From an uncultured Lachnospiraceae bacterium (lineage in GTDB: Bacteria > Bacillota > Clostridia > Lachnospirales > Lachnospiraceae): a stretch of DNA of 64,000 nt. The DNA is taken from contig CAMOGH010000008.1 in assembly GCA_946614135.1 (NCBI GenBank), forward strand, positions 447 through 64,446. Reading direction: 5' to 3'. The position numbers were made by a program, and so were the translations under genes. A model generated the notes under the pieces. That model saw nothing but the letters and a program-made list of their open reading frames with translations, made no database searches and was not told where the DNA came from. The first letter of the stretch is position 1; every line of letters starts with the position of its first letter. Shown here piece after piece: positions 14,490 through 24,535 of the stretch.

Positions 14490-16034
14490 TTATTTTTCTT
14501 CCTCAAGACTTTCGCTCTTATGAACCACTACAGTTTCCTCATAACAAGAGAATATATCGTCTATCAGAGCCTTGTCAGGTTTTGGTGTTACAAGACTTAC
14601 CACTGGAACAAGGATAAGACCTACCAACATTGTAAATGCTCCTGCATTGATTGGAGATTTTATCATTGGATGTAACATATTAACAACAGTAAATCCTACA
14701 CCAAAAATATAACTTGCCCAAACTGAAGCCTTTGTGATCTTCTTTGAGTAAAGACCAAACATAAACGGTGCAAGGAACGCTCCGGCAAGGGCTCCCCATG
14801 AAATACCCATTAACTGTGCAATAAACATTGGCGGATTAAATGCAAGTATTACTGAAAGAGCAATAAATGCAACAACTAAAATTCTCATAAGACTGAGCTG
14901 TGTCTTCTCTTTCATATTCTTTGCTATCACCGGTTTAATAAGGTCAAGCGCAAGTGTTGAACTTGATGTAAGTACCAGTGATGAAAGAGTTGACATTGAA
15001 GCTGAGAATACAAGTACAACTACTATACCGATAAGTAAATCAGGAAGTGTTGAAAGCATTGCAGGAACAATAGAGTCAAATGCTACTGATCCATCCGGCT
15101 TATAAATATCAGCTCCACTAAAAAGTCTTGCAAAACCTCCAAGGAAATAACATCCTCCTGAGATTACAATAGCAAAAAATGTTGAAACAATAGTTCCTGT
15201 TCTAACCGCCTTCTCATCCTTAATGGTATAGAATTTATGTACCATCTGTGGAAGTCCCCAGGTTCCAAGCGAAGTAAGTATTACAACACCTAAAAGATTA
15301 AGTGGATCTGGTCCAAAGAAGCTGGCAAAAAGTCCCTTAGAACCAAGAAGAGGTGCTGCAGTAACCGCTGCATCCACTTCTACTTCTGAAAGTTTCTTAA
15401 CTGCAGCAAGGAATCCCCCCTGTCCATTAAGTACTGCTATTATTACAGCAGCAATACCAATAAGCATTATTATACCCTGAATGAAATCGTTTAATGCAGT
15501 TGCCATATAACCACCTACAACTACATAAACACCTGTAAGGAGTGCCATAATAACGATACATACATGATAGTCTATTGAAAAAGCCATTCCAAAAAGTCTT
15601 GAAAGTCCATTATAAACTGATGCTGTATACGGAACCAGGAAAACAAAAGCAATAACAGAACCAACAACCCTGAGGGCTTTTGAATCAAATCTCTTTCCAA
15701 AATATTCAGGCATGGTTCTAGCTTCAAGTTTCTGAGTCATAACTCTTGTTCTTCTTCCAAGAACAAGCCATGCAAGAAGACTTCCTATCATCGCATTTCC
15801 AAGTCCGATCCAGGTAGATGAAAGTCCATACTTCCATCCGAACTGACCCGCATATCCTATAAATACAACTGATGAAAAATAAGATGTTCCAAAGGCAAAG
15901 GCCGTGATCCATGGACCTACAGTTCTTCCACCAAGTACATAATCATTAACATTTTTGGCTCTTTGTCTCGAATAGAAACCTACACCAATCATCACAGAAA
16001 AAAACACAACCAGAAGTATAATTTTTACTGCCAT
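14490..16034 (-). CDS. Sodium:solute symporter family transporter
   Basis: 514 aa with about 13 TM segments. The N-terminal region is typical of SSF/PutP/PanF-like carriers. Confidence 0.8.
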   Translation of the reverse strand: MAVKIILLVVFFSVMIGVGFYSRQRAKNVNDYVLGGRTVGPWITAFAFGTSYFSSVVFIGYAGQFGWKYGLSSTWIGLGNAMIGSLLAWLVLGRRTRVMTQKLEARTMPEYFGKRFDSKALRVVGSVIAFVFLVPYTASVYNGLSRLFGMAFSIDYHVCIVIMALLTGVYVVVGGYMATALNDFIQGIIMLIGIAAVIIAVLNGQGGFLAAVKKLSEVEVDAAVTAAPLLGSKGLFASFFGPDPLNLLGVVILTSLGTWGLPQMVHKFYTIKDEKAVRTGTIVSTFFAIVISGGCYFLGGFARLFSGADIYKPDGSVAFDSIVPAMLSTLPDLLIGIVVVLVFSASMSTLSSLVLTSSSTLALDLIKPVIAKNMKEKTQLSLMRILVVAFIALSVILAFNPPMFIAQLMGISWGALAGAFLAPFMFGLYSKKITKASVWASYIFGVGFTVVNMLHPMIKSPINAGAFTMLVGLILVPVVSLVTPKPDKALIDDIFSCYEETVVVHKSESLEEEK

Positions 16035-16143
16035 TTTTCCTCTCCCTTTTCATACTTTAAAATATTGTTATGCCAGTGCCTTATTGCGCTGATGCATTAA
16101 CGCACTAAAGTGATTATGGCAGAATCATCCTTTTGTGTCAAGA

Positions 16144-16178
16144 ATGGCTTCTTCTTGAAATTATCAAGAAGAAGCCAT
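16144..16178 (-). terminator. Strong hairpin ending the RiPP operon
   Basis: Perfect 15-bp stem atggcttcttcttga / tcaagaagaagccat, 27 nt after the peptide stop. The T-tract is weak (TTCTTG). Confidence 0.6.
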
Positions 16179-16204
16179 AGGCATAATTCAATAAAATCAG
16201 ATAA

Positions 16205-16369
16205 TTAATTGCTAATTTTACCAGTAACTGATGCACCTACTGTTCCACTTAAAGATGCTGCAGCTGCAACAACAGTTCCTAACGTTGCTGTAACAGCACA
16301 TGCCACTGTACAACCTGATGCAACTGATCCAGCACAAATAAGTCCACATGCAAACCCACATGATGCCAT
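16205..16369 (-). CDS. RiPP precursor candidate: a 54-aa Cys-ladder hydrophobic peptide (an alternative TTG start at 16426 would add a 19-aa leader)
   Basis: GAGGAGG lies 8 nt before the ATG. The peptide is MASCGFACGLICAGSVASGCTVACAVTATLGTVVAAAASLSGTVGASVTGKISN, and 45 of its 54 residues are A/G/S/T/V/C. It is the last gene of an operon with two rSAM/SPASM enzymes. Confidence 0.75.
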   Translation of the reverse strand: MASCGFACGLICAGSVASGCTVACAVTATLGTVVAAAASLSGTVGASVTGKISN

Positions 16370-16430
16370 ACCTTTCACCTCCTCATATATAATATTGTAT
16401 AATTCTTGTTTTTTAATGAAAAACAAGCTA

Positions 16431-17117
16431 TTACACCTTATCTAATAACAAAGCATTAGGTATTTTTTTAATAAAAAAATACGAAGAAATTATTAATATA
16501 AAACCTACAATTGCAACTATTCCAATTACACCAACAGATATTTTCTGAAAAGTATCCATCAACATCATTATCGATATTATTAATAACACTGGTAATATTA
16601 AAGAAATCATCATTACTATTATTTCTCTTTTTATTATCCATATGATAAGCATATTTATTGCAATAAAGGAAAGTCCAATTAGTATGCCTGTAATAATAAA
16701 CTCTATATCAGTTACAAAATTAACCGCTATATATCCTTTTTGGAAATACATATACATCATAGCAACGCACCCTACTATAGATAATATAAAACCTACAATA
16801 AAGCTATATACCACTTTTGCTAACCAGATAAGCTCTTTTCTTTTTGTCATACCTAATAATATAGGCATAACTTTCGCCTTCATATCTACTCCCATATTAA
16901 TATTAGAAATAAGACTCCCCATTACCGCCATGTTTAATGCAGTAAAAATAAATAACTGTCCTCTTAATATTTTTTCATTAAAAATTACAGCATTATTAAT
17001 ATTGCTTATGAAAAAATACAACTCCAACCCAAAATATAATAAACATAATGGAAAACAGGATTTAAAAAATACTTTATTTTCCTTCCAAATTATTGTTTTT
17101 AAAATCTTATTCTTCAT
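16431..17117 (-). CDS. ABC-2 type transporter permease (export or immunity)
   Basis: 228 aa with about 6 TM helices. Overlaps the ATPase gene by 11 nt. Confidence 0.75.
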   Translation of the reverse strand: MKNKILKTIIWKENKVFFKSCFPLCLLYFGLELYFFISNINNAVIFNEKILRGQLFIFTALNMAVMGSLISNINMGVDMKAKVMPILLGMTKRKELIWLAKVVYSFIVGFILSIVGCVAMMYMYFQKGYIAVNFVTDIEFIITGILIGLSFIAINMLIIWIIKREIIVMMISLILPVLLIISIMMLMDTFQKISVGVIGIVAIVGFILIISSYFFIKKIPNALLLDKV

Positions 17118-17985
17118 ATACTTTCAAATATATTTCCTTTAAATTCAAATATTTTTTTGATATTTCTCTGATACTAATCTGATTATTTTGAATTTCATCA
17201 ATTAATACATCAGCATCACTCTCGTTCAAATGAATTTCAAACTTATCTTCACTTTTTTTATAATCTATATTTTTATTATCTAATAATACTTTTATATCTC
17301 TCGGATTGCGCCCTACTATTTCTAAGTGTTTAAACTTCATTCTTTCAATATTTGATAAATCACGTTCAAAAAGAATTTTTCCCTTCTTCATTATCCCCAC
17401 TGAATCACATAAATCGATTATTTCATCTACATTATGTGATACAAAAATAGCACTATTATCCCCTTCTTTTACCCATTCCCGAATACATTTAGATATTATT
17501 GTTCTTGAATTAATATCAAGTCCATCATATGGTTCATCCAGTAATAGCAAGTTAGGTTTTATCATTAACGCTCTTGCTAAAACCACTCTTCTTTTAAGTC
17601 CCTTTGACAATTTACTTATTATTATTTTTTTATATTCTTCCAGATTAACCATCCTCAAGTATTTTTTTACATATTCTTTATTATATACGCCATGAAGTCT
17701 TGCAAAAAATTCCAGATTAAACCAAACTGAATATTGATCATATAAACCATTATCATCTAAAACAAGTCCAATAACGCTGTCTTTATTAGAAAAAGAAATG
17801 GTTCCACCGTTATACTCAATAAGATCCGCTATTATTTTTAATAACGTAGTTTTTCCAGATCCATTTTCTCCTAATAAACCATATATATGATTTTTTTTTA
17901 TAGCCATGGTTAAATTATTTATAACCACTTTTTCTTCGTATTTTTTTATAATATTGCTTAATTCGACTAAATTACTGTTTTCCAC
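17107..17985 (-). CDS. ABC transporter ATP-binding protein
   Basis: 292 aa. Walker A GENGSGKTT, signature LSKGLKRR, Walker B LLLLDEP. Confidence 0.9.
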   Translation of the reverse strand: MENSNLVELSNIIKKYEEKVVINNLTMAIKKNHIYGLLGENGSGKTTLLKIIADLIEYNGGTISFSNKDSVIGLVLDDNGLYDQYSVWFNLEFFARLHGVYNKEYVKKYLRMVNLEEYKKIIISKLSKGLKRRVVLARALMIKPNLLLLDEPYDGLDINSRTIISKCIREWVKEGDNSAIFVSHNVDEIIDLCDSVGIMKKGKILFERDLSNIERMKFKHLEIVGRNPRDIKVLLDNKNIDYKKSEDKFEIHLNESDADVLIDEIQNNQISIREISKKYLNLKEIYLKVYEE

Positions 17986-19153
17986 AAATATACTTCCCCT
18001 CCATATTTTTTTCTTTTAAATCTCTATGTAGCATCATACAATCATTGCACGCCCACTTTAATGAACATTTTTCACATGATGATATTTTTTTCCTAAGTGT
18101 CCAATATTTCGAAATTTTGCCATTACAAAATGCTTTATCAATTTTTTCATTCGATAGATTTAAAATCACTTCATCCCACGCCGGACAAACCTTAACATCT
18201 CCATTTAAGGAAATTGCCATATTCCCTCGTAAACATCTATTATTATTCTTTTGAATTAAAATTTCATCCATTGAATAATTTATTCTTACGTTAAAATCAT
18301 CCAACGTCAAGGGTGTATTTACATAATTTATCTTTTCAATTATAGTATACTTCCTTATATTATTTTCCTTCAATAATTCTATTGATGTTTTTATCAACTC
18401 CGTCTTTTCAATTAGAACCAATTTATACTTTATTTTTGTATTATCTACATTTAGTATAGATTCTTTAATTCTATTAATATTTTTTTTAACATCAGTTAAT
18501 GTAATATCCAAACAAACCTTATTACCTCTCATAAAATCAATTTTATTAATATCAATACATAAAGCATTTGATACCAATGTAATCTTTGTTTTTTTATTAT
18601 TATTTCTAATAGCTAAAATCGTTTTTTCTATATAACCCCAGTTTGTAAAAGGATTTCCTCCTAGTATGACTACCTCTTCAACAGGAATATTTAATATCCT
18701 ATTTAAACAATCCGTTAGAATACTCTGATCACACACATTTTCTTCATTTTCCCAAATCGCACACACCCTACAAGGTCTTGTCAAACTATCCCATCCACAT
18801 AATTTACAATTCACTCCGCATTCTCGCGATGCTTCAATATATAATTTTTTTAATCTAGGCGGATTTTCTATAATCCCCGGTATACTTTTTTCATTATTAA
18901 AGAATAACTTCGTATTGTATACCGATGTATCATACAAATATAATACCCCCTCATCAAGTAATTTATTTACAAGTTCTTTAAACTTCTCATCAACGTTATC
19001 CTCTATATATTCAACTCTATTATTCAGTAAACTATTGAAAATATTCGCATATTCATTTTCAATATGGTAATTCCTCCCACTTAAATTAAAAAAACACCCA
19101 TCATCCCCATAATATTCATATCTAGCAATTGGTAACAGTCGTAAAAAAGCCAT
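17972..19153 (-). CDS. Radical SAM / SPASM-domain peptide maturase B
   Basis: ATG (MAFLRLL) follows GAGGAG. CGVNCKLC is the rSAM motif after an N-terminal extension of about 115 aa. The C-terminus has C-x10-G-x4-C and CEKCSLKWACNDC (C-x2-C-x5-C-x2-C). Confidence 0.85.
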   Translation of the reverse strand: MAFLRLLPIARYEYYGDDGCFFNLSGRNYHIENEYANIFNSLLNNRVEYIEDNVDEKFKELVNKLLDEGVLYLYDTSVYNTKLFFNNEKSIPGIIENPPRLKKLYIEASRECGVNCKLCGWDSLTRPCRVCAIWENEENVCDQSILTDCLNRILNIPVEEVVILGGNPFTNWGYIEKTILAIRNNNKKTKITLVSNALCIDINKIDFMRGNKVCLDITLTDVKKNINRIKESILNVDNTKIKYKLVLIEKTELIKTSIELLKENNIRKYTIIEKINYVNTPLTLDDFNVRINYSMDEILIQKNNNRCLRGNMAISLNGDVKVCPAWDEVILNLSNEKIDKAFCNGKISKYWTLRKKISSCEKCSLKWACNDCMMLHRDLKEKNMEGKYICGKQ

Positions 19154-19314
19154 TTTTCTCCTCACATTTTCCTATCTATTTAAAGCCCATTCTATTTTAT
19201 TTTCAAATATATCAAATGCATTGGGATTAATTTCCAAGATGGAATAAATAACAACCAATAGCATTCTAAAATTTTCAATTAGATTATTACAATTTTTTTC
19301 CTGAACTTGTTCAT

Positions 19315-20679
19315 CTAAGCATAATGTAGAATAACAAACAGGGCATGCCTTATACAGAGGACAATACCCACATTTTTCAGCACATTTTTTTTGTTATATT
19401 TTTTCATTACATTAACTATCGCTTTAAAATCAATACCATCATATACGTTTCCAATAGGCATACTATAATCAACTCTTTCACACATATCAAACGTTCCATC
19501 AACTCTAACGGACAGCTTTGTTCCTGGAACACAAGCCCCTGTATATGGTAAAATGGGTACCTTATAGTCTTTATACATCCTTCTCATAAAAAAAAGCGCA
19601 GAATTAAGATTCCAAAACATATCTGCATATTCATTTGAAAAACTATTATTTTTCATATCCCCTATAAATAATTTTAATATTTCACTATATTCCGCATTGA
19701 ATTTCTCAATATCTTCCTTTCTAAACTTTTTGTAATAATTCGTATTTTTATCTAATACGGCGTTAACAAATGATAATCTCGGTAAATCCTCATCTTTAAA
19801 AAATTCATTATTTTCTAATAAATTTGTTTTATAATCGAATACACTTATTATATTAATTCTATTATAATCGGGATATTTTTCCTTGAAAGATTTCAAATTA
19901 TTCATGATTATATCAAAAGAACCTTTATTATTCGGAAGAACTCTATTTCTATCATGATTATTTTTGTTTCCATCCAAACTAACCGAAATATAAAAATCAT
20001 TAGAAACTAAGTATTCCGCAATTTCATTCTGCAATAATAAACCATTTGATGTTATGCTAAAAATATACTCTGACGGACAATTTTCTTTAGTATATTCCAC
20101 ACATTTTTTAATTATTTCGAAATTTAATAGTGGTTCTCCTCCATAAAATGTAACAACACATTTTTTTCCTGGATTATACATTAATACCTTCTTAAATTCC
20201 TTAAAATAATAATCTAATGCATCTATTGCAGTTTTTTCACTCATTATCTTATCCGTTCTATTTCTTGTATTGTCATATGACTCAGAAAAAAAACAATATT
20301 TACATCTCAAATTACAATTTTCAGTTAAATTAAGAACTATCTGTCCAAAATACCCCAGCTTAAACAAACATATTTCAACTTCTTGCTCATCAAACCTATC
20401 AATAAATTGTTGTTCTCTCTTTACCTGTTCACTTGTCTTATAAAATCCTGTAAATAACCTCGAATATTTTTCTACAAAAGATAATCCCCTTTTTACCATT
20501 TTTTCGTTTTTATATTTTTTAAATAATATTTTTTCAACATCTTCAATTGTATTTCCCTCATATAAATCAATACTCTCTTTTATTATTTCATCACACGCGA
20601 TAACACATCCCGTATTAGAATCATATATATACTGATTTCCATTTACTGTTTTAAAGTCGATATAACATTTTTTCTTCAT
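19315..20679 (-). CDS. Radical SAM / SPASM-domain peptide maturase A, frame-broken at an A8 run; the intact frame would continue to 19193
   Basis: CNLRCKYC at residues 122-129 and GACVPGTKLSVRVDGTFDMC (C-x11-G-x4-C). The remaining SPASM cysteines (CAEKCGYCPLYKACPVC) are encoded in the -1 frame after plus-strand T8 at 19385-19392. Confidence 0.8.
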   Translation of the reverse strand: MKKKCYIDFKTVNGNQYIYDSNTGCVIACDEIIKESIDLYEGNTIEDVEKILFKKYKNEKMVKRGLSFVEKYSRLFTGFYKTSEQVKREQQFIDRFDEQEVEICLFKLGYFGQIVLNLTENCNLRCKYCFFSESYDNTRNRTDKIMSEKTAIDALDYYFKEFKKVLMYNPGKKCVVTFYGGEPLLNFEIIKKCVEYTKENCPSEYIFSITSNGLLLQNEIAEYLVSNDFYISVSLDGNKNNHDRNRVLPNNKGSFDIIMNNLKSFKEKYPDYNRINIISVFDYKTNLLENNEFFKDEDLPRLSFVNAVLDKNTNYYKKFRKEDIEKFNAEYSEILKLFIGDMKNNSFSNEYADMFWNLNSALFFMRRMYKDYKVPILPYTGACVPGTKLSVRVDGTFDMCERVDYSMPIGNVYDGIDFKAIVNVMKKYNKKNVLKNVGIVLCIRHALFVILHYA

Positions 20680-20807
20680 TCCTTACTCCACATCCCTTAT
20701 GACGTTATTTTTTCTGCAAATATGTGTGTTTTATATATTTATCTTCACATTCCAATCAATTGTATGACATTTTTTTCATTAGTTAATTTAAGCATAAAAG
20801 CAGAACT

Positions 20808-20835
20808 ATTGTAAAAAAAAAGAGAGTTGTGTCAA
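20808..20835 (-). promoter_or_regulatory. Sigma-A type promoter of the RiPP operon
   Basis: Minus strand reads TTGACA, 16 nt, TACAAT, about 120 nt upstream of the maturase A ATG. Confidence 0.55.
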
Positions 20836-20944: not shown

Positions 20945-23900
20945 TTACCTATCCAATTCTATTGTAAATCGCTTTATTCCACCAGAGAATTTATAATCTC
21001 CTACCCAGAGGTATTTGCCATCATAATTTAAATAATGGGCATTAAAGAACGTATCACTGGACTGAATTGACTTTGCATCATAGGCCATATCAAAGAATTC
21101 ATTTGTTGGATCTGACAGCAATACATCATAACCATCATACATAGAGGAACCAAGTCCAAGAACAGCTATAGATTTTTTCTCCTGCTCCTGTATTTCAGAT
21201 ACTGCATCATCTATGGAATTCCATATTATAACTCTTCCAAATCCTCCATCACTAAGCACAACTTTTCCAGTTTTTGTAACTAATGCGTCTGCCACACCAT
21301 TAAATGATCTGTATACCTCCTCATATCTTCTTTCACCATTATCTAATCCCACTACCATCTTAACTTGGGCGCCTTCAATTACATTTGCGTTATTGTAGGC
21401 TGTATCATTTAAAATATCAGCTACATTTACTATTGTGGCTGTATCTGTACTAGAGGCCATAGCAATGTATGTATTTCCATCATCACACTTCGTTACATGA
21501 ATTGAAGGGCTGTCGTAACTAATCACTCTTTCAGATGGAGCCTTAAATGTAAGCTTTAATATTTTAACTGGCTCATCTCCATCTTTAGGTATACCCTGAT
21601 AAATATAAAGCTCATCGTGCTGAACAAGATATAAATACCCATCACAATAGTCAATTGATTTAATATAATTAAACTCTCTATTTCCTATTTTTTTATTAAG
21701 ATATATATCCGGATACTCTCCTTCAAATACATCCTCAATATTTTCCCAATAATAAAGTCTTCCTCTTTCAGCTATAACAAGGCCTGTTTTATTATTCTTA
21801 TTAATTAGTGCTGCATCTTCCACAGGTCTTGTAAAAGTTATTCTCATATCTGGTTTTGCATCATTTTCATTTGGAATCTTCTTCCAAAGACAAACCACTC
21901 CATTATAGTCATCTATTGCAAGCATTCTTTCCCCATCTGAAACAACGATACAGTTCTGATATTTGTACATTACATCTGCTGTCTTTACATAAGGATTTTC
22001 AGCACCAATACAGATATCAGGCACATCTATACAATGCTTTTCTATAACGCCTATATCCCTTCTATTCCAATAATAAGCCCCATTATAGACAAATGTATCT
22101 CCGTCAATTTCTTCTAGTTCAGATATATTAATATCTGCAGGTTCATCAGGGAACTGATTTGCAGCAAAGCCAACTACCTTTCCTGCATTTATGCCTACTG
22201 AAAATAGATTACCTTTTTCATCCTGAACAAGAGAACATATGTCTCCTCCCAGGAAATAATAATAGTCATCTGCATCTATCTGACTTCCGCCTATATAATA
22301 ATCCGGCCTGTCACTGGCGTTATCAATTTTTCCATCTTTCCAGACAGTTATTGCTCCTGCCTCATGAAGAAGAAGAGTTCCTTTAGGAATAACCTTACCG
22401 TCTTTTGTTGTCATATCATACTTTAAATAAAGTCCAGATGGCTGTCCTGAATTTCCGTCCCAATATGTAAAATCTCCCGGATTTTCAGCAAATTGGAAAA
22501 GAACTTTTGAGTCATCATTTTTGCTTCTAATTTCCTCATAGGATATATTTTCATAATCATTAAAGACTCTTAAAGCTGTCATATTAGCCCCGTCAGACTG
22601 AACTATATTATGATCTCCTATAAGAAGAATATTATCCTTACAGGTTATAGTACGTGGAGTACCTCCTGTCTTAATAACTTTATCTGGAAATTTATCCTCT
22701 CTTGTTGGAAATCCCTTATCCCATATAAGAACATATCCATTCTGAGTTGATGTACATATAAGTTTTCCTTCCTCTGTCCATAAATCCCAAGGCCAGGCAA
22801 TTCTTGATTCATTGGAATTTATAAATGCAGCTTCTTCTCCATAGTTGTAGTCTGTATGGTCAATCATCTGCATAATAGAGAAATCTGCAGGAGTACCATT
22901 TGCCCCTTCATCTGGAAGATCTTCCCATACAAGAATTCTGTCATTCTTTGCGTCTGCCACAAAGATTTTAACTTTTTCATCTTTAGTAACAGTAGCTGCA
23001 ACTCCCACAGGCCAGTTAAGACTTCCCAGGTCATATCCCGCCTTTGAAGACTCCGCATCTTTTTGTCCTAAGACACAATAAATATATTTTGAAACATCTG
23101 CCCCATTGAATAATCTGTCTTCTGGCACCTTAAATATTATTACTCTGTTAGACCATGTGTCTGACAGGAAATAATAATTAAATCCGTCCAAACAAACTGA
23201 ATCCATATCTCCCGGATGCTCATAATAAGTATCACTGCATTTTTCCATACCGGAAGAAAGAAGTGTAAGATCTAAAGCCATTCCATCTTTTAATTCACGA
23301 TACTCTGGATTTTCTGCAGCTATATATGAATTATTCTCTATAAAATCTGTTTTATAAAGACTTGAAAATGATTCAACATATACAGATACTGATTTATAGT
23401 AAATTCCATTTACAGAATTAAATCCCACTCTGATATCGCACCTTCCGCCTTCTCCTGGAACTGCGTATATTACGCCCTCTTTATCAACCTTTGCAATTGT
23501 TTCATCAGAAGAACTCCAGCTATATTCTACTTCTGTTCCCTTTACTAAAACATCCAGATCAAAATATTCCCCTGGTTCAAGGCGTACTCCCATTCGGGAG
23601 AATTCAAAATCAATAACATTTACAGTACATTTATACTGCTTTCCTTCATAAGTCGCTGTTATTTCACAACTTCCCGGTTGATTGCCAAATACTTCACCGT
23701 TTCCAACTCCAGCTATATTATTATTTGAAGAACTCCAGCTAACTTTATTTTTATCTGCTTCTTTTAAATCCAGCTGATATTTTTCTCCAGCTCCAAGAAA
23801 TATATTTTTCTGATTAAGTTCATATGTCTTATCCTCTTTAATTTCTTCTTTTAGGGCACCACTGGAATCAAATAAATATTTCTTTCCATCTATTGTTTGT

Positions 23901-24370
23901 CTTCCAGTTACCATGGCTCCAGAGGAATCCATATAATATTTTTTTCCTCCTGAATTAACCCAACCGGTTACCATAGCTCCAGAAGAATTCATATAGTACC
24001 ATTTTCCGCCCGATTTTACCCAGCCAGTTGCCATAGCACCACTGGAATTCATATAATACCATTTACCGCCTGATTTTACCCAGCCTGTAGCCATAGCTCC
24101 AGAAGGATTCAAATAATACCATTTTCCACTAACCTTGATCCAGCCGGTCTCCATATAACCCTTGGAATTAAAATGATACCATTTTCCACCAATACTAGCC
24201 CACTTACTTGCAGGATAAGATCCATCCTGATAACAATACCACCAACCGGTAGCATTATGTTTCCACCCCGCAGTGGCTGCATCAACTTGCCCATATCCAC
24301 TTTTAAAACGAACTGAAAAAATGAGAAAAAGCGCAAGAAAAAAAGCTAAAAACCTTTTTGTTTTTACCAT
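20945..24370 (-). CDS. Secreted cell-wall-binding protein: signal peptide, about 7 choline-binding-type repeats, two Big_2-like Ig domains, and a large C-terminal propeller-like region
   Basis: GGGAGGTG precedes the ATG (MVKTKRFLAFF...). There are 20-aa GWxKxxGKWYYxxxSGAMxT repeats. Two segments resemble Big_2 domains. Recurrent h-h-h-W-x-x-h-P motifs fill the C-terminal region of about 800 aa. Confidence 0.8.
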   Translation of the reverse strand: MVKTKRFLAFFLALFLIFSVRFKSGYGQVDAATAGWKHNATGWWYCYQDGSYPASKWASIGGKWYHFNSKGYMETGWIKVSGKWYYLNPSGAMATGWVKSGGKWYYMNSSGAMATGWVKSGGKWYYMNSSGAMVTGWVNSGGKKYYMDSSGAMVTGRQTIDGKKYLFDSSGALKEEIKEDKTYELNQKNIFLGAGEKYQLDLKEADKNKVSWSSSNNNIAGVGNGEVFGNQPGSCEITATYEGKQYKCTVNVIDFEFSRMGVRLEPGEYFDLDVLVKGTEVEYSWSSSDETIAKVDKEGVIYAVPGEGGRCDIRVGFNSVNGIYYKSVSVYVESFSSLYKTDFIENNSYIAAENPEYRELKDGMALDLTLLSSGMEKCSDTYYEHPGDMDSVCLDGFNYYFLSDTWSNRVIIFKVPEDRLFNGADVSKYIYCVLGQKDAESSKAGYDLGSLNWPVGVAATVTKDEKVKIFVADAKNDRILVWEDLPDEGANGTPADFSIMQMIDHTDYNYGEEAAFINSNESRIAWPWDLWTEEGKLICTSTQNGYVLIWDKGFPTREDKFPDKVIKTGGTPRTITCKDNILLIGDHNIVQSDGANMTALRVFNDYENISYEEIRSKNDDSKVLFQFAENPGDFTYWDGNSGQPSGLYLKYDMTTKDGKVIPKGTLLLHEAGAITVWKDGKIDNASDRPDYYIGGSQIDADDYYYFLGGDICSLVQDEKGNLFSVGINAGKVVGFAANQFPDEPADINISELEEIDGDTFVYNGAYYWNRRDIGVIEKHCIDVPDICIGAENPYVKTADVMYKYQNCIVVSDGERMLAIDDYNGVVCLWKKIPNENDAKPDMRITFTRPVEDAALINKNNKTGLVIAERGRLYYWENIEDVFEGEYPDIYLNKKIGNREFNYIKSIDYCDGYLYLVQHDELYIYQGIPKDGDEPVKILKLTFKAPSERVISYDSPSIHVTKCDDGNTYIAMASSTDTATIVNVADILNDTAYNNANVIEGAQVKMVVGLDNGERRYEEVYRSFNGVADALVTKTGKVVLSDGGFGRVIIWNSIDDAVSEIQEQEKKSIAVLGLGSSMYDGYDVLLSDPTNEFFDMAYDAKSIQSSDTFFNAHYLNYDGKYLWVGDYKFSGGIKRFTIELDR
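23849..24268 (-). repeat. Tandem 60-nt coding repeats (cell-wall-binding repeat array)
   Basis: About 7 successive 20-codon units. The central three are near-identical at the DNA level. Confidence 0.85.
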
Positions 24371-24535
24371 AAAACACCTCCCTGACATTATAATTTTAAC
24401 TACTTCTTTTCTACTTACCCCTAAATAGAATTTTTTCTTCCTGCAGATATTTCCCGCAAGAAGTCCTACATATATAAATTATAAAATACAGGATTTTATT
24501 ACTCAAATGAAGGAATTGTGAAATGGTTTTAAACA

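Follow-up and report, generated by a model that had tools for sequence, protein, structure and literature searches.

The operon described here occupies positions 20835 to 16144 (minus strand) of a 64,000-nucleotide stretch of contig CAMOGH010000008.1 (assembly GCA_946614135.1) from an uncultured Lachnospiraceae bacterium; this whole stretch is called the window below. Its five genes encode, in order, the radical S-adenosylmethionine (rSAM)/SPASM maturase A, the rSAM/SPASM protein B, an ATP-binding cassette (ABC) ATPase, a membrane permease and, in a small open reading frame (ORF), a peptide with an N-terminal Cys ladder. With a probability of roughly 0.6, we read the locus as a strain-specific OFF allele of a conserved and undescribed two-enzyme rSAM cluster for a peptide that is made on the ribosome and modified post-translationally (RiPP), working by the mechanism proposed below. 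The window strain probably makes no product, and the interest of the locus attaches to the cluster family and its leaderless architecture, not to the window copy. A previous sequence-only reading had described a sactipeptide-like rSAM RiPP operon. Its gene order, the overlaps of 14 nt between the B and ATPase genes and of 11 nt between the ATPase and permease genes, the Cys motifs of A and B and the sequence of the 54-aa peptide were all confirmed. The class assignment stands as far as the rSAM/SPASM enzymes, the ABC-2 transporter and the Cys-ladder precursor are concerned, and does not stand for the leader that sactipeptides carry or for any model cut-off, none of which is reached.

A leaderless precursor peptide

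The last gene (16205..16369, minus strand) encodes the 54-aa peptide MASCGFACGLICAGSVASGCTVACAVTATLGTVVAAAASLSGTVGASVTGKISN, which was called a leaderless precursor from its conservation, its Shine-Dalgarno sequence and its ratio of nonsynonymous to synonymous substitution rates (dN/dS). Cys residues at positions 4, 8, 12, 20 and 24 are followed by a Cys-free tail of 30 residues, and no charged residue occurs before position 51. The ATG at 16369 is preceded by a GAGGAGG Shine-Dalgarno sequence at a distance of 6 nt. In 10/10 homologues an ATG with a Shine-Dalgarno sequence is likewise present, and in six of the ten an in-frame stop lies at most nine codons upstream. Sequence comparison thus firmly supports that the peptide family has no leader, which the sequence-only reading had considered possible. 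A start at an upstream TTG, giving a 73-aa ORF with a 19-aa leader, was considered and rejected, because this extension is the Shine-Dalgarno region read in frame and contains stop codons in the orthologues. The 4-nt gap previously given before the last ORF holds for the TTG-started form only; the conserved ATG leaves a 61-nt spacer after the permease stop codon.

The peptides of the family are 51-98 aa long and all begin with M-[A/S/P]. The first Cys is found at residue 3-6 in 10 peptides and at residue 11 in the peptide from candidate division TA06. They share a C-x3-C-x7-C-x3-C core with a conserved G-C-x2-x-C unit, and a Cys-free tail of about 30 residues or more that is rich in Gly, Ala, Ser, Thr and Val and hardly charged. 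The layout of Cys in the N-terminal half and a Cys-free arm of matching length behind them, as in sactipeptide hairpins, was seen in 9/11 family peptides examined, the exceptions being L025 (an extra Cys at position 37) and L026 (first Cys not aligned with the others). Identity to the window peptide is 64-77% in close relatives, and the Cys pattern is kept out to Paenibacillus and TA06. Pairwise dN/dS values of 0.11-0.18 between related loci indicate purifying selection. The small ORF and its ribosome-binding site are retained in every related locus examined except L016, where the gene is lost. Conservation of the ORF together with its ribosome-binding site and purifying selection makes this more than a chance reading frame. 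The check that the sequence-only reading had set itself, conservation of the small ORF beside homologous maturase pairs in other genomes, turned out in its favor, as the ORF is conserved next to such pairs or their remnants.

The only model matched by the peptide was TigB (18.6 bits against a cut-off of 70, E 1.4e-3), which, judged from the sequence, reads as shared composition. GTVG occurs once in the tail; the motif G-[TS]-[VA]-G-A is semi-conserved, with Val replaced by Ala in L020, L022 and L023. Two peptide genes, at L002:4512-4688 (P0001) and L006:154-348 (P0002), have gained one or two tandem GCTV(A/V)(P/S) units and encode six or seven Cys compared with five; behind the L006 gene come an IS91-type transposase (Y2_Tnp) and an integrase. 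Six motifs from the peptide gave no match in the searchable literature, and among publications on leaderless sactipeptides, follower peptides and rumen or Hungate bacteriocins nothing was found that describes this cluster family.

Maturase A

A carries the SAM-cluster motif CNLRCKYC, a SPASM motif C-x11-G-x4-C and an N-terminus like a RiPP recognition element (RRE). It matches PF04055 with an E value of 8.7e-17. Its best NCBIfam model is CcpM (230 bits, cut-off 500), followed by RumMC (168 bits, cut-off 720), GG_samocin_CFB (167 bits), the lachnocin maturase (149 bits), PapB (140 bits, cut-off 340) and the SCIFF maturase (118 bits, cut-off 425). The substrates of all these best models are Cys-containing or Cys-rich peptides. 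The best solved relative of A is the thioether synthase CteB (5WGG, E 1.5e-22), aligned over residues 12-433; since the alignment begins at residue 12, it includes the RRE. At the sequence level A thus resembles the thioether-forming maturases CcpM, RumMC, PapB and CteB. An identity as anaerobic sulfatase maturase was rejected: TIGR03942 gave 92 bits (cut-off 349), and the flanking genes include no sulfatase. The sequence-only reading had named such an identity of the maturases as a refutation, and this did not come about.

No curated model reached its cut-off for A, B or the peptide, either in the window or in the family members checked. Together with the missing literature match for the peptide motifs, this bears out the statement that the peptide belongs to no named family. 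The features of sactipeptide maturases (RRE, CxxxCxxC and auxiliary-cluster Cys) are present in frame-repaired A and in B and are not specific to sactipeptides; RumMC, StsB, GggB and the other sactisynthase models stayed below cut-off for both proteins. With regard to ranthipeptides, A lies below the cut-offs of TIGR03974 and NF047865, and the peptide has neither a SCIFF-model match nor a leader.

Protein B belongs to a separate rSAM family

B (17972..19153, minus strand) is an intact protein of 393 aa, recognized from its motifs and its AlphaFold model. The most likely start is the ATG at 19153, with AGGAG 5 nt upstream, 18 nt past the restored stop of A. B contains the motifs CGVNCKLC, C-x10-G-x4-C and C-x2-C-x5-C-x2-C and an RRE-like N-terminus. 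PF04055 barely registers (E 1e-3), and with the best NCBIfam model, SPASM_w_grasp, B scores 31 bits (cut-off 175). When 1.84 billion representatives were scanned in full with HMMER, 483 relatives of about 400 aa came out at E < 1e-3, and conservation was determined from an alignment of 36 members. The SAM-cluster cysteines are 92% conserved, and 3/36 members have no CxxxCxxC at all.

In addition, window B has a C128-x2-C131-x2-W motif (18760-18771; columns 152-155 of alignment A3). Across the family it lies 8-12 residues after CxxxCxxC and is 89-97% conserved (the two Cys 89% and 97%). It is kept in the three members lacking the SAM-cluster cysteines and is absent from TigE. From its sequence, this motif may be an additional metal site.

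The AlphaFold model of B (predicted local distance difference test score 92.3, predicted template modeling score 0.90) predicts, from the N-terminus on, a domain of strands and helices that would fit an RRE, then the rSAM core and then the SPASM domain. In a Foldseek search the model matched the anaerobic sulfatase maturase anSME, TigE (TMq 0.58, the highest query-normalized TM-score) and CteB (TMq 0.53), and the rSAM epimerase EpeE was also among the matches; the similarity to anSME is at fold level only. The best PDB match of the B-family profile is 8VPO, the methyl-cyclopropylglycine synthase TigE, over its full length (E 1.8e-21). The profile and structure matches point to no particular chemistry. 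On sequence grounds B is a separate, very divergent RRE-rSAM-SPASM family and not a paralogue of A, so that its earlier treatment as an A-like maturase has to be revised.

The TIGR04150 'pseudo-rSAM' model is matched by 16/36 B-family members at about 27 bits (cut-off 250), and A matches TIGR04148, the rSAM partner of TIGR04150, with 167-190 bits against a cut-off of 300. The members without the SAM-cluster motif and the parallel to the TIGR04148/TIGR04150 pair fit an accessory or partner role for B. Potentially, B might instead be an independent second tailoring enzyme acting on the Cys-free tail, by cyclopropylglycine formation, epimerization or another C-H functionalization of Val, Ile or Ala, with A alone cross-linking the Cys. 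The TigE match of the family profile, the TigB match of the peptide, the GTVG and the semi-conserved motif in the tail, and EpeE among the structural matches of B are in line with this, and the TIG cluster likewise has two rSAM enzymes (PMC10878394). However, a GYW motif is strictly conserved in cyclopropyl synthases, is needed for TigE activity and supplies the Tyr ligand of Aux I (PMC10878394). B has no GYW, and in the alignment the GYW of TigE (338-340) falls where the B-family profile is not conserved; a cyclopropyl synthase identity of B, considered from the TigE and TigB matches, was therefore downgraded. Furthermore, the Val of TVG is Ala in three loci, the TigB match is compositional, and the B-family members without SAM-binding Cys argue against an essential independent radical reaction family-wide. 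We therefore regard an independent second chemistry of B as unlikely.

Intact clusters in distant lineages

About 45 homologues of A, of approximately 500 aa, were found at an identity of at least 36%. The contexts of six distant homologues, from rumen Clostridia to Paenibacillus and candidate division TA06, were examined (L020/21, L022, L023, L024/25, L026 and L028/29), and all six contain A, a B-type gene directly downstream, a transporter and a Cys-ladder peptide. A and B are adjacent and co-occur in 7/7 intact clusters. Each locus examined has one Cys-ladder ORF; thus the single precursor for two maturases, noted before for the window, holds in the intact clusters examined.

The position of the peptide gene varies. 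In L020/21, L022 and L023 it follows the permease gene and is accompanied by a membrane protein of about 165-216 aa. In L024/25 the peptide gene is found upstream of A, and so it is in L026, from the complete genome of the cultured Paenibacillus sp. FSL M7-0896 (CP150250, cluster at around 4.573-4.589 Mb). It has the same position in L028/29 (candidate division TA06); there the peptide is 98 aa long, with nine Cys, and the transporter is an ABC exporter of fused type that has OEP/MFP partners. A precursor encoded last is therefore a feature of the relatives of the window and of L020-L023, and not of the Paenibacillus, TA06 and L024/25 clusters.

Membrane proteins of 163-216 aa are encoded at L007:12539-13030, L001:3879-4370, L020:12717-13283, L022:9663-10313 and L023:1749-2249. 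They are poorly conserved, have a charged N-terminal helix and are encoded downstream of the peptide, but upstream of A in L023. They match no Pfam family significantly and have no homologue in the window. They are candidates for an immunity or accessory protein.

The OFF allele and its relatives within the species

In the window, the gene for A (19172..20679, minus strand) is a pseudogene or OFF allele. The written frame ends at 19315 after 454 aa, owing to a frameshift in an A8 homopolymer tract (19385..19392, minus strand) that was recognized by comparison with an in-frame allele. The SPASM end, CAEKCGYCPLYKACPVC, falls in the other frame, and the restored frame ends at a TAG at 19172-19174. 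The sequence-only reading had taken A as one ORF; it hinted at the defect only by calling the gene 'frame-repaired', and the defective copy and the loss of maturases in the closest relatives went unseen. The in-frame allele reads ...YNKKCAEKC... at the tract, which corresponds to two fewer A; one extra A also restores the frame.

By exact-sequence look-up, the frameshifted 454-aa A was found on 2 contigs and an intact A of 501 aa (P0279), reading ...YNKKCAEKCGYC..., on 7 contigs of up to 37.9 kb. P0279 has one other substitution relative to the window A. Since an in-frame allele exists in the same species, the window carries an OFF allele made by a change in homopolymer length. A sequencing error was rejected as the cause, because the A8 sequence is 100% identical in the independent rumen metagenome contigs L011, L013, L014 and L015 and because the 454-aa product is called on 2 contigs. 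A programmed frameshift was rejected as well, because the site is not conserved in other lineages and an in-frame allele exists.

Across B, the window sequence recurs with 100% identity in five metagenome contigs, four of which also reach into A and over the A8 tract. Each of the five breaks off at window position 18395, where an element of the IS3 family is inserted in B after residue 254. The element was located at L011:1257-2458 and L012:827-2028, in sheep-rumen metagenomes, and encodes an rve transposase and HTH_Tnp_1. Intact B was found on 8 contigs in the exact-sequence look-up. Several truncated A and B alleles exist; one of them, on a contig of 102.8 kb, is the IS3-split B's C-terminal half. 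The alleles P0282, P0283, P0285 and P0287 suggest further insertion or deletion events in the population. In-frame A or IS3-disrupted B in near-identical strains is a production polymorphism as expected for a bacteriocin locus. A search of 5.8 billion proteins returned only three homologues of the peptide and three of B, and the sole return of a metagenome scan with the peptide alignment was a conspecific contig.

It is conceivable that the cluster is still productive and that the A8 tract is a phase-variation or slippage switch: transcriptional or ribosomal slippage, or reversion in part of the population, would yield some full-length A, and mature peptide would be made in small or switchable amounts. 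In favor of this, one length change in a homopolymer is the only lesion of a gene that is otherwise one residue off the intact allele, in-frame and out-of-frame alleles coexist in the population, the lineage L008/9 is also frameshifted in A in an A7 tract, and promoter, B, transporter and peptide are all intact in the window. However, the site of the frameshift is conserved in no other lineage, so that there is no programmed signal, an A8 tract is shorter than those giving efficient transcriptional slippage, and other alleles of the same species are irreversibly broken by IS3 or truncation, which points to loss and not to regulation. We consider a productive window copy improbable.

Maturase loss in close relatives

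The closest named relatives are rumen 'Eubacterium sp.' and Lachnospiraceae metagenome-assembled genomes (MAGs). Four related lineages (L007/18, L001-3/17, L008/9 and L016) have no functional maturases and have kept the transporter. In Eubacterium sp. RGIG7096 (L007/L018), residues 1-122 of A are joined to residues 150-393 of B, and the ATPase, the permease, a 53-aa peptide and a 163-aa membrane protein are intact. At the junction (L007:9914-10000, the same in L018) stands a palindrome, GAACTAAGTCGCTGCG...CGCAGCGACTTAGTTC, whose GC richness sets it apart from the AT-rich DNA around it; it may be a small mobile or repetitive extragenic palindromic (REP)-like element or a scar. In the Lachnospiraceae MAG L001-3/L017, only residues 1-51 of A (with a stop at codon 2) and 330-393 of B are left; the transporter, a 58-aa peptide and the gene for the 163-aa protein are present, the latter cut by the contig end in L002 and L017. 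In the metagenome contigs L008/L009, A is frameshifted in an A7 tract and B is interrupted past residue 281. The A7 frameshift (L008:780-800 and L009:158-178) lies at residue 240 of A in two independent assemblies, in a different tract from A8, and homopolymer tracts look like a recurrent weak point of the AT-rich A gene. Eubacterium sp. RGIG507 (L016) has the ATPase and permease only. These are encoded at L016:9118-10684, are 58-70% identical to those of the window, adjoin a two-component system and resemble an orphan immunity or export pair.

In pairwise comparison every gene has a dN/dS of 0.11-0.31, and A one of 0.11 after repair of both frameshifted copies. Low values in all genes indicate that the inactivations are recent and independent. 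Another reading gives the small protein a role other than, or in addition to, that of a RiPP substrate: as an unmodified hydrophobic peptide or membrane micro-protein, it would work with the ABC-2 transporter, either as a leaderless bacteriocin-like peptide or as an accessory subunit, and the rSAM genes would be dispensable. We consider this very improbable: L007/18 and L001-3/17 do keep ATPase, permease, peptide and 163-aa membrane protein intact with A and B deleted, peptide dN/dS is low also in comparisons with these loci, and the uncharged stretch and length of the peptide are compatible with membrane insertion, but the deletions leave recognizable, mostly stop-free remnants of A and B, dN/dS is averaged over long branches such that the losses can be recent, L016 lost the peptide and kept the transporter, which thus does not need the peptide, and at least five conserved Cys beside two rSAM enzymes of Cys-peptide type across phyla are hard to explain without modification.

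Comparison with known systems

Thuricin CD is similar in having two adjacent rSAM/SPASM genes (TrnC/TrnD) and an ABC ATPase/permease pair (TrnF/TrnG). Its peptides, from the precursors TrnA/TrnB, resemble the window peptide in being hydrophobic and in joining a C-x3-C-x3-C ladder at the N-terminus to a C-terminal arm free of Cys. In contrast to thuricin CD, the window cluster has one precursor and not two, without leader, GG site or protease, and B belongs to a separate family from A, while neither reaches a sactisynthase cut-off; this comparison was made with the published description and not with the TrnC/TrnD sequences. TrnC and TrnD form an obligate complex in which TrnC's rSAM activity alone is essential, and do not divide the labor between them (PMC12093266). 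One Cys group per maturase, sulfur-to-alpha-carbon bridges and a hairpin with up to five bridges, all put forward in the sequence-only reading, are conjecture.

CcpM (CLI_3235, TIGR04068) is the best curated model for A, with 230-240 bits for the window, Paenibacillus and TA06 proteins, and CcpM substrates are Cys-rich as well. However, A stays below half of the 500-bit cut-off, and CcpM systems have no second rSAM enzyme of B type. CcpM systems have a leader (19 aa in SacP23 of Paenibacillus polymyxa), the accessory proteins TIGR04066 and TIGR04069 and a subtilase (PMC10731318), all of which are absent from the window cluster. The TIGR04065, TIGR04066 and TIGR04069 models matched neither the operon proteins nor the peptide.

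Ruminococcin C (RumC1-5 with RumMC1/2) and CteB/SCIFF systems share the RRE-rSAM-SPASM architecture with A and also occur in gut or rumen Clostridia. A is below the RumMC (720) and SCIFF (425) cut-offs, and, in contrast to A and B, RumMC1 is a close paralogue of RumMC2. Profile search places TigE, of the TIG/TVG systems (TigB/TigD/TigE; TvgA/TvgB), nearest to the B family among solved structures. The TIG cluster combines two rSAM enzymes with a transporter, and Gly, Ser, Thr, Val and Ile abound in its substrates (PMC10878394). They have no Cys ladder, whereas the window peptide has no repeated TVGG or TIGSVS motif. The bioinformatically defined TIGR04148/TIGR04150 'GG_samocin_CFB' system likewise pairs an rSAM maturase with a divergent rSAM-like partner. 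However, A and B are below its cut-offs, window B keeps CxxxCxxC, and the name of the system implies target peptides that carry a GG-type signal, whereas the window family is leaderless.

Proposed mechanism

In the working system, a precursor of 51-98 aa would be translated without an N-terminal leader. By analogy with its relatives, A would install Cys-derived thioether cross-links to the backbone or side chains of the same peptide, probably acting with B as an obligate partner in the manner of TrnC/TrnD. As there is no leader, recognition must use the core or the tail; it would proceed through the core itself or through the C-terminal tail as a follower, the latter being our best guess. The hydrophobic, nearly uncharged product would be exported by the DrrA-type ABC-2 transporter, which by analogy may also protect the producer. 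Export or self-protection by the transporter is supported by the relatives that kept it after losing production. An antimicrobial function of the product is inferred from analogous systems. With A frameshifted, no mature product is expected in the window strain unless slippage restores the frame. It is tempting to speculate that the family is the first leaderless class of rSAM thioether RiPPs, in which the modified Cys ladder would lie at the very N-terminus, the RREs would read the core or tail, cross-linking would require a heteromer of A and B and the product, of about 50 residues, would be multiply bridged and almost uncharged. We put this forward tentatively, since we think it somewhat more apt to fail than to hold.

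Several observations weigh against the OFF-allele reading and its mechanism. The A/B/peptide family is known from sequences alone, and P0279 is known from the exact-sequence look-up alone, without its operon neighbors. A misses the cut-offs of sacti-type and of ranthi-type models by about the same margin; being far below every curated cut-off, it does not allow sactionine, ranthionine or another modification to be distinguished. The known sactisynthases that were studied are all leader-dependent (review PMC8172795), and the window peptide family has no such leader. A leaderless substrate is thus without precedent among studied sactisynthases, which makes the recognition step speculative. TigE, the nearest solved relative of B, makes a cyclopropane and not a thioether, and hence B may carry out a second, different modification and not act as a partner. 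Finally, the peptide gene stays intact and conserved in related lineages despite the loss of the maturases (counted as four, of which L016 has lost the peptide), so that the peptide could have a function independent of them.

Transporter, expression signals and genomic surroundings

The ATPase (17107..17985, minus strand; 292 aa) is of the DrrA or lantibiotic-protection type, with matches to PF00005 (E 1.9e-25) and the DrrA subfamily (153 bits) and a DrrA1-3_C domain, and is 62-70% identical across related loci. Its partner is a membrane permease of 228 aa (16431..17117, minus strand). The window permease itself has no Pfam match; it was called ABC-2 type because its orthologue in L026 (Paenibacillus) passes the ABC2_membrane_2 and ABC2_membrane_4 cut-offs, that in L020 also matches ABC2_membrane models, and a weak profile link exists (hhalign probability 54%, E 1.3e-4). 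The earlier ABC-2 assignment is thus sustained by the orthologues and not by the window protein.

The promoter-like site of sigma-70 type proposed before, TTGACA-16-TACAAT, was located at 20808..20835 (minus strand), with 11/12 matches and about 130 nt 5' of the start codon of A. The region contains 36 promoter-like matches, and 39 are expected from shuffled sequence; the support for this site is therefore its position and not statistics. At the end of the operon, 16144..16178 (minus strand) forms a perfect 15-bp stem with a 5-nt loop (-26.3 kcal/mol, z = -5.5). The stem had been taken as a terminator; the hairpin as such is real, but it has no U-tract, UCUUGACAC comes after the stem, and a terminator scan of the region did not call it. 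It is probably a terminator or an mRNA-stabilizing hairpin, not a textbook intrinsic terminator. Right after it, at 16113-16141 (minus strand), lies a strong extended -10 promoter-like site, TTGACA-17-TG-CATAAT (11/12 matches), presumably the promoter of the downstream sodium:solute symporter gene (16034..14490). An Rfam search in and around the operon, including its leader, found no riboswitch or other RNA element.

The flanking genes are of housekeeping type; besides the sodium:solute symporter they encode CvfB, ribosomal protein L1, a PPTase, an ABC-F protein and a surface protein with choline-binding repeats. Genes for a sulfatase, a protease or a regulator were not found in the flanks. 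Directly upstream (20945-24388, minus strand) a secreted protein of 1147 aa is encoded, with choline-binding or cell-wall-binding repeats and a Big_2 domain, followed by a long stretch without a family match. The GC content of the operon (window 16001-20000) is 0.27-0.28 and that of the flanks 0.35-0.38, that is, the operon is about 8-10 points lower. Homologous clusters occupy unrelated genomic neighborhoods. Low GC content and unrelated neighborhoods fit a mobile island or horizontal acquisition. At the island boundaries no convincing flanking direct repeats were found, so that low GC and differing contexts are the only signs of an island, and a megablast search of PLSDB for a plasmid origin gave no match.

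Significance

Genome mining and engineering of RiPPs assume an N-terminal leader that docks on the RRE of the maturase. If our reading is true, a leaderless peptide modified by two RRE-bearing rSAM enzymes would require recognition to be modeled in another way. It would account for the lack of a name for this cluster family in the RODEO and antiSMASH rules and the curated NCBI models, and the function of the B-type rSAM family would become approachable for the first time. For the organisms themselves, the locus is a clear case of a bacteriocin-type production polymorphism in rumen Clostridia, in which the transporter was kept and the maturases were inactivated several times in independent events, through frameshifts in homopolymer tracts, IS3 insertion and deletions.

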